Source of the DNA: Escherichia coli O157:H7
GTDB taxonomy: Bacteria; Pseudomonadota; Gammaproteobacteria; Enterobacterales; Enterobacteriaceae
NCBI RefSeq assembly: GCF_013167455.1
Contig: NZ_CP038328.1
Reading direction: 5' to 3' (one strand)
Length of the DNA stretch: 64,000 nucleotides
Shown: in pieces, positions 61,301 to 64,000 of the stretch
Layout: every line of letters begins with the position of its first letter
Position numbering within the stretch: position 1 is the stretch's first letter
Program-made: the position numbers

Positions 61301-64000
61301 ATACTGAGAGCCTTTATCGCTGTGATGGATGGTGCCAGACGGACGACGGGCCCACAACGCCTGCTCCAGCGCATCCAGCACGAATGTCGTTTCCATAGAC
61401 GATGAGACCCGCCACCCCACGATGTATCCGGCAAACACATCAATGATAAACGCCACATAGACGAAGCCCTGCCATGTGCTGACGTAAGTAAAATCAGCCA
61501 CCCACAGCTGGTCAGGTCGTTCTGCCACGAACTGACGGTTTACGCGGTCGCCTGCGGCAACGGCTTTCCGGCTGATGGTCGTACGGACCTTTTTACCCCG
61601 GAGAACACCGGCAAGTCCCATAACCGCCATGAGACGTGCCACTGTACATCTGGCCACCCTGATTCCTTCCCGTAACAACTGACGCCAGACTTTACGCACA
61701 CCGTACACCTGATGATTTTCATCGTATACGCGCTGTATCTCTCTCTTCAGCCAGTCGTCGTGCTGCGCACGGGCACTGCGTTTATCCGGATGATGTCGCT
61801 GTTGCTGACAATGGTAATACGTTGACGGGGCAATATGCAGTTCGCTGCATACCGGTCCGACCCCGTACTGCTCACGCAGCTTATCCAGCAGTGGCATCAT
61901 TTTTTCCAGAGGCGGTCGAACTCCGCCTTCGCAAAATAAGCGGAAGCCTGGCGAAGGATATCGTTACTGCGGCGCAGTTCACGATTTTCACGTTCCAGCT
62001 CTTTCAGACGCTGACGTTCAGCGCTGGTGAGCCCACCATCACCGCCCCCGGTATCCCGCTCATGCTGGCGAACCCAGACACGCAGAGTCTCCGGCGTACA
62101 GCCAATCTTTGGGGCAATGGAACAAATTGCCGCCCACTGTGAGTCATATTCATCCTGACTTTCCAGAACCATACGAATCGCCCGCTGACGGACTTCGGGG
62201 GAAAAACGAGTATTTTTAGTCATCCTGTTTACCTCTTTCTCAGGGAGTTTAGTCTCCAGGATTTCCGGGGCGGTTCATTCCCCTTGAACAGGATCTACAA
62301 TAAAAGCGTCCATAGCACTCTGATAGCGAACAGAAAACGATCTTTCTCCTATTGTGAGTCTTTCCATTTGATGATCTCTGGTCGCACGTTGTAAAACTTC
62401 AACATCTTGTGTTGACAAGTAATTTCCAGAAGACAAATTAAATGAAAATGGCATAATTTTATCCCTAAAGCATATATCTTACTTTTCGATAATTAACAAA
62501 AAGCCATCCTCCACAGCAATACTCCATCAGAATAATTGTAGGATTATTTTAATCTAATTTATAAGCATAAAATATATACTCACTAAATAGCTGCGCAGAA
62601 TAGTAGATCATTTAGAGGGAACTCAACCCGATTGTGCGATCTGATCAATCGCCAAATCAATACAAATCACCAACCGGACTGAGCAATGTCGATCATACCA
62701 CCAATTTCCCGTGACGAACGACGCCTAATACAGAAAGCCATCCATAAAAGGCTGACAGCCATGCTGATGCTGCACCGGGGCGACCGTGTCAGCGACGTTG
62801 CCCGCACACTATGCTGCGCCCGTTCCTCTGTTGGGCGCTGGATTAACTAGTTCACACAGTCGGGTGTTGAGGGACTGAAATCATTACCTGCCGAGCGAGC
62901 CCGCCGCTGGCCGTTTGCGCATATCTACACACTATTACGTGAACAGGTAAAATATTCACTCGCGACTTTGGCTACAATTATTCACGCTGGAGTACAGAAC
63001 TGCTGACAATAAAAATCAATGAGATAACCGGCTGCCTGTTACATGCTGGAACCATTCGCCGCTGGTTGTCGTCTGTGGGGCTTGTGTGGCGAAGGGCTGC
63101 GCCAACTCTACGTATCCGTGCCCCGCCTAAAGATAAAAAGATGGCAACAATCCATAACGCACTGGACGAATGCAGCACAGAGCATCCGGTCTTTTATGAA
63201 GATGAAGTATTTATCCATCTTAATCCCAAAATCGGTGCGGACTGGAAACTGCTCGGGAAGCAAAAACGAGGGGTCACGCCGGAACAAAATGAAAAATATT
63301 CTCTGGACGTAGCGCTGCACAGCGGGACAGGTTAAGTCAGCTGTGTGGGCGCCAACAGCAAAAGTTCGGCGCTGTTCATCAGACTGCTGAAGCGGCTTAA
63401 AGCTACATACTGTCGGACGAAAACCATCACGCTGCTCGAGGACAACTACATTATCCACAAAGGCCGGGAAACCCAGCGCTGGCTGAAGGATAAACCGAAG
63501 TGCAGAGTCATTTATCAGCCGGTTTAATCTCCATGGGTGAATCATTTTGAATAGCTATGGCAGATACTTCACGCCACAATAACGCGTAATCATCAGTGCC
63601 GCTCAATGTGGCAACTATTGAAAAAGTTCGCCATTTTATGGAATCCGTCAGTCCATTCCCCGAAGGCAAACATGGGCTGGCAAAAATGTGCGATATTAGG
63701 CGCAGCTATTTAGTTATTCCGTCATTTCTCCCGCCCGTGTAAACACTACTGAATCTTGTCGTTGTGACAAAGCTATAAATAGTCAATCACAGCACGTTTC
63801 TGCGTACGACGCGCTGCAATTTTCTTTACGATTTATAACTGTACAGGTGAACTATGAGTTATTTGGATACATACATATAGTGTAACGCCTGTTGTATATT
63901 TTACTCATATCTTTTTACAGGATGAAAACCAATGATACTGGCGCATAGCCTCCTCCAACCTTACCCCTGTATAACACGACTCATATAACCTGGGATTTCA

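Follow-up and report, generated by a model that had tools for sequence, protein, structure and literature searches.

The feature near the end of the analyzed window, a stretch of 64,000 nucleotides from the Escherichia coli O157:H7 contig NZ_CP038328.1, is with high confidence a dead full-length copy of IS630, or of a very close isoform, lying among effector genes at the end of a prophage. The RefSeq annotation already describes it as “IS630 family transposase; frameshifted; internal stop”, with pseudogene bounds equivalent to 62686-63742, and the feature is ordinary and already known. In the deposited phage records of ompW-integrated lambda-like prophages (PPompW), in contrast, the relic is left unannotated.

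Identity, extent and termini of the element

In a megablast search of 5,426 complete E. coli genomes, window positions 62582-63713 matched intact IS630-family elements over about 1130 bp with E=0. We aligned the relic with three intact relatives (IS630 in VL40, the copy in LH50-c and ISEc33 on plasmid pEC81-2) and with the relic of E2348/69. Ungapped DNA identity to the window copy was 91.2% for IS630 of VL40, 90.5% for the LH50-c copy, 82.8% for ISEc33 and 81.6% for the E2348/69 relic. The best full-length intact relative among the matches listed was IS630, at 89% BLAST identity and 91% ungapped identity. A closer intact copy was also sought: the band of 90-95% identity comprised seven records, and the matches listed there included only a 55-bp fragment. 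The name IS630, as used here, is the RefSeq label of the closest intact copy, whose transposase is WP_004989531.1.

The first-pass annotation of this DNA had recognized an IS630-family transposase, and the strong similarity of the relic to this family, at 91% DNA identity to intact IS630, bears this out. After repair of its reading frame, the translation scored 198.9 bits against the NCBIfam profile NF033545 (“IS630 family transposase”; cutoff 100), compared to 244.6 bits for the intact relative, and 67.1 bits against the Pfam domain DDE_3 (PF13358; cutoff 28.6). HTH_23 and HTH_29 were also above their cutoffs on the repaired translation, N-terminal to DDE_3. All the attributes of the IS630 family were therefore found together: the family profile, DDE_3 with HTH, DD35E, inverted repeats, TA flanks, and a size of ~1.1-1.2 kb with a single transposase ORF. 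Those of an active autonomous copy were not, since the transposase ORF is interrupted and there is no sign of recent movement.

The homology to the element spans 62583-63713. The interval of 62686-63560 given initially thus corresponds to a real feature, although it falls short of its actual extent. The first and last bases of the homology are the same in all five independent insertions that we aligned, and directly outside C-TA...TA-G the flanks are unrelated across all five. The relic measures 1125 bp; as intact IS630 spans 1153 bp from one TA flank to the other, five deletions have cost the relic 28 bp (Table 1). No other copy of the relic allele was found within the window.

A TA target-site duplication is the signature of the IS630 family, and IS630 itself inserts into CTAG. 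The left terminus of the relic matches the reverse complement of the right one at 15 of 17 positions, the first 11 perfectly, and the pattern is identical in intact IS630. The window copy shares the arrangement C-TA-[IS]-TA-G with four further insertions of related elements, all independent. Judged by its sequence, the relic is complete: its two inverted repeats are there, and a TA flanks it at either end within a CTAG target. We infer the TA duplication from the conserved C-TA/TA-G pattern, and not from a before-and-after pair of sites. An empty site, with the flanks joined across a single CTAG, was sought in the 5,426 genomes and none was found, so that the insertion is not demonstrable by such a pair; 514 of the 514 genomes bearing the flanks carry the relic, and in all of them the flanks are about 1.1 kb apart.

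Table 1. Coordinates of the IS630 relic, its termini and its lesions (positions in the window).
Feature	Position	Strand	Description
IS630 relic	62586..63710	+	alignments to intact relatives
Left CTAG half	62583..62585	+	C, then TA copy 62584-62585 of the target-site duplication
Left terminal inverted repeat	62586..62602	+	AATAGCTGCGCAGAATA
1-bp deletion	62629..62630	+	untranslated leader between left inverted repeat and ATG
Transposase pseudogene	62686..63691	+	retained ATG to site of destroyed native stop; codon-by-codon comparison with intact 343-aa ORFs
24-bp in-frame deletion	62748..62749	+	8 codons (THDKNYAR) lost, N-terminal DNA-binding region
Stop 1	62848..62850	+	TGG (Trp) to TAG
Frameshift 1	62961..62962	+	1-bp deletion, GGC to -GC; frame 62686 to frame 62688
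Stop 2	63333..63335	+	AAA (Lys) to TAA
Stop 3	63525..63527	+	TAC (Tyr) to TAA
Stop 4	63552..63554	+	CGG (Arg) to TAG; directly after the presumed catalytic Glu (NHFE*)
Frameshift 2	63621..63625	+	1-bp deletion in A-run; A6 in the intact element, A5 here
Frameshift 3	63689..63690	+	1-bp deletion; native TAG stop codon destroyed
Right terminal inverted repeat	63694..63710	+	TATTAGGCGCAGCTATT
Right TA copy of the target-site duplication and G of CTAG	63711..63713	+	direct reading, alignment

Lesions and neutral decay of the transposase gene

Scored against the intact 343-codon ORFs, the transposase gene retains its ATG start codon and carries the lesions listed in Table 1, and the relic is without transposase coding capacity. 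Translation of frame 62686 gives the N-terminal part (MSIIPPISRDERRL...). The three peptide strings quoted in the first-pass annotation, VFYEDEVFIHLNPKIG, ITLLEDNYIIHKG and YQPV*SPWVNHFE* (asterisks denote stop codons), are all present in the frame starting at 62688. Two of the in-frame stops that it reported, at 62848 and 63333, were exactly placed; the third, given as 63528, is really at 63525, off by three nucleotides, and a fourth, at 63552-63554, also falls within the interval given initially. Its single frameshift within 62686-63560 agrees with our comparison, in which this interval contains exactly one, the 1-bp deletion after 62961. The gene had been called heavily decayed, correctly, and its state is somewhat worse than was stated: the ORF has four stops and three frameshifts and lacks 24 bp. 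The 24-bp deletion, two of the 1-bp deletions in the ORF and the deletion in the leader had been overlooked.

The presumed DDE triad of intact IS630 consists of D181, D261 and E297, with a spacing of 35 between the second D and the E; these are presumed to be the catalytic residues by motif analogy. The relic keeps D, D and E at the aligned positions (EDEV, EDNY and NHFE); a stop codon separates its second D from its E. A change of DEVD to DEVF (Asp-to-Phe) is also seen, for which we do not claim loss of a catalytic residue: by analogy with the “DE” motif of Tc1/mariner elements, the catalytic Asp would be the one in the retained EDEV.

The stops and frameshifts could in principle be sequencing or assembly errors in a strain that has an intact IS630 transposase. 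We give this virtually no credence. Lesions and all, the 1131-bp element is the same (100.0% identity) in hundreds of independently sequenced complete genomes from several serotypes as well as in PPompW phage records, and a 24-bp deletion together with 50 nonsynonymous changes is not an error pattern. The stops, whose reality had been marked for checking, are shared without change by 514 independent complete genomes; they are thus not sequencing errors.

The substitutions, assigned to branches by parsimony, point to neutral decay of the window copy. Its branch has 18 synonymous, 50 nonsynonymous and 3 stop-creating unique changes, compared to 80, 18 and 0 on the branch of the active ISEc33, and 2, 2 and 0 on the IS630 branch. 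Synonymous changes make up 25% of the changes on the window branch, and synonymous sites make up about 23% of sites (231/987); since the two shares are nearly the same, the pattern on this branch is neutral. The window branch alone accounts for changes at roughly 7% of the coding positions. At the enterobacterial synonymous rate usually cited, such a neutral branch would, as a rough estimate, be millions of years old. The window copy has been a pseudogene for practically its entire private history, whereas ISEc33 is under purifying selection. The LH50-c copy (L002:3106-4137) lies among broken IS elements. Its frame is open, but its private changes are 3 synonymous to 10 nonsynonymous, and it may be a recently relaxed copy.

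This neutral pattern also bears on the idea that the transposase is still expressed through programmed recoding, by frameshifting or stop read-through. Some insertion sequences do use programmed frameshifting, and the adjacent IS629 carries an ALIL pseudoknot. In the relic, however, seven bypass events would be required (four stops and three shifts), and the intact IS630, the LH50-c copy and ISEc33 each consist of one uninterrupted 343-aa ORF, so that this clade needs no recoding. Consistently, an Rfam scan of positions 59000-64000 found only the IS629 ALIL pseudoknot; within the relic it gave no hit, and hence no recoding element. With the substitution pattern added, this leaves recoding a negligible probability, and we continue to regard the gene as dead.

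The effector locus and the distribution of the relic

The prophage whose end holds the relic is a lambda-like one integrated at ompW (PPompW, Sp9-type), and the relic sits in its exchangeable effector locus. The gene order is trp operon, yciG/F/E, a C-terminal ompW fragment (annotated beside yciE), a 21-bp attB, an IS3 fragment, an nleG-like gene, the relic and espM1, with nleG following onward of espM1. The locus thus shows what characterizes PPompW, namely a prophage end marked by a split ompW, nleG and espM genes, and the 21-bp attB. The 21-bp “attB-in-prophage” sequence GTCATGCAGTTAAAGTGGCGG has an exact match at 59663-59683 on the minus strand, and the window end is 99-100% identical to deposited PPompW genomes. 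The attB at 59663-59683 is vacant in the window; in PV15-279 (L001), the homology breaks exactly at 59663, where a prophage integrase/excisionase module is inserted.

The relic had been described as lying beside an effector gene, and it is indeed only 128 bp upstream of the start codon of an NleG-family effector gene (Pfam T3SS_NleG, 151.6 bits). On its other side, the 3’ end of espM1 is about 250 bp away, at the window edge, and the relic is downstream of espM1, whose annotation lies just past the end of the window. The prophages integrated at ompW have been described as defective; every such effector locus has at least one IS element, and it is probably through ISs that the effector repertoire came to vary (Nakamura et al. 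2021, PMC8112680). The view taken from the DNA alone, that the accessory end of a lambdoid prophage with effector cargo has become an IS graveyard, holds up in this context (PMC8112680): an IS3-family fragment and IS629 are found within 4 kb in the window, and related genomes have in addition ISEc8 and an IS256 fragment, a few kb away and just beyond the window end.

The IS629/IS1203-type element of the IS3 family is complete (1310 bp, 60968-62277, minus strand, both ORFs), and it splits the neighbouring nleG-family gene into 60491-60919 and 62275-62454. It is flanked by a 3-bp TTC target duplication (60965-60967 and 62278-62280). A query across its left junction was covered by 0 of the 5,426 genomes, and the insertion appears specific to the source strain. 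The ALIL pseudoknot (Rfam RF01497, 121.5 bits) lies at 61826-61942 on the minus strand, at the overlap of the IS629 orfA and orfB; it is a programmed-frameshift signal of the IS3 family. The IS3-family transposase fragment, at about 60100-60350 (equivalent to L004:16098-16342), is a further IS relic and is located between attB and the nleG-like gene, and in RefSeq it is frameshifted, with an internal stop and a missing N-terminus.

Across the 5,426 complete E. coli genomes searched, 514 records had the element at 99% identity or more. Among the matches listed, the 1131-bp relic, lesions included, was 100.0% identical in O157:H7, O111 and O145, and O26 and O103 strains were among the 514 flank-bearing genomes. 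The relic is likewise present, at 100%, in ten deposited records of PPompW or Stx2a phages. The relic allele occurs as a single copy per genome, always at the same site. Since the lesions are fixed across 514 genomes, the element died before the effector module was disseminated, and it has stayed in place from then on.

This distribution is relevant to whether the relic is truly inert. With its intact ends, it could be a substrate for an incoming IS630 transposase and so drive rearrangement of the locus, or else the flanking nleG and espM1 genes could have come to use its sequence as a regulatory spacer or as the origin of a small HTH peptide; that either of these holds is very improbable in our judgement. 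Regarding the first, the relic would be a non-autonomous element, movable in trans by an IS630 transposase, which might reshuffle the effector locus. Its terminal repeats are as in intact IS630 (the first 11 bp identical, and the same 15/17 pattern), and other strains of E. coli, as well as plasmids, do carry intact copies of IS630 and ISEc33. We nevertheless hold such mobilization to be very improbable, given one allele copy per genome at a constant site and no empty site among the 5,426 genomes. Moreover, each O157 chromosome listed has a single further match to the IS630 family, apparently a second pseudogene (the E2348/69 allele), so that a source of transposase is not normally present.

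Regarding the second, the relic might serve the flanking effectors as promoter, terminator or spacing, or encode a 54-aa N-terminal HTH peptide (62686-62850). The short distances to the nleG-like start codon and to espM1 (128 bp upstream of the former, about 250 bp downstream of the latter) would suit such a role, as would the invariance of the relic in 514 genomes. However, the flanks are equally invariant, and the recent spread of the whole module therefore explains the invariance. Our scan of 62280-64000 for promoters and terminators gave 3 matches vs 3.4 in shuffled sequence for the former, and 1 vs 1.6 for the latter, with no excess; promoter-like and terminator-like matches are thus at background frequency, and the relic contains no Rfam family. 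As for the peptide, the HTH region is 8 residues short in the 54-aa ORF, and the whole window branch is neutral. Co-option is, accordingly, extremely improbable, and we favour an element that is dead and inert.

Proposed history and comparison with known systems

In the history that we propose, IS630 would have inserted, by the normal cut-and-paste mechanism of its family, into a CTAG between an nleG-family gene and espM1. The transposase gene would then have been inactivated and would have drifted neutrally since, accumulating about 7% substitutions and the lesions. The relic would already have been dead when the effector module spread among EHEC and EPEC lineages, and at present, encoding no transposase and having no activity of its own, it would be passive cargo of this module. 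We infer both the order of insertion, death and spread, and the absence of any residual function. The unique lesion set of the relic is a useful marker of one effector module (nleG-like gene, relic, espM1 and nleG), which is common to O157, O145, O111, O26 and O103 strains at 100% identity; this indicates that the module spread after the death of the IS. The relic is a concrete, dated example of the known pile-up of ISs in prophage effector loci, and it raises no new question.

The closest known system is IS630 itself (Shigella sonnei type; intact copy in E. coli VL40, WP_004989531.1). It shares with the relic the termini AATAGCTGCGC...GCGCAGCTATT, the insertion into CTAG with TA on both sides, the single-ORF layout with the same ATG, and the aligned DD35E positions. 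In contrast to IS630, the relic is 1125 bp long instead of 1153 bp, and has four stops, three frameshifts in the ORF, the 24-bp deletion and about 7% lineage-specific substitutions. ISEc33 (plasmid pEC81-2, WP_001395480.1) resembles the relic in family, ends, target and ORF length; unlike the relic it is intact, and the two are only 82.8% identical.

The second IS630-family pseudogene, found in E2348/69 by nleB/nleE/efa1/lifA, is similar to the relic in being dead, with its ends kept and several stops, and in lying beside type III effector genes. It differs in being an independent insertion of another lineage (81.6% identity) at another locus, and in its lesions, which include three stops and a deletion of 12 bp. 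There are thus two loci at which a dead member of the IS630 family adjoins effector genes. The E2348/69 pseudogene is located at L006:5144-6121, and has 100% identical places in O157:H7 chromosomes (H113 and H114); it probably accounts for the two places per record that were matched in O157 genomes.

Finally, the exchangeable effector loci described for PPompW (PMC8112680) have the same order as the window, nleG / relic / espM, and the window is distinguished from the PPompW records by the extra IS629 inside its nleG-like gene.
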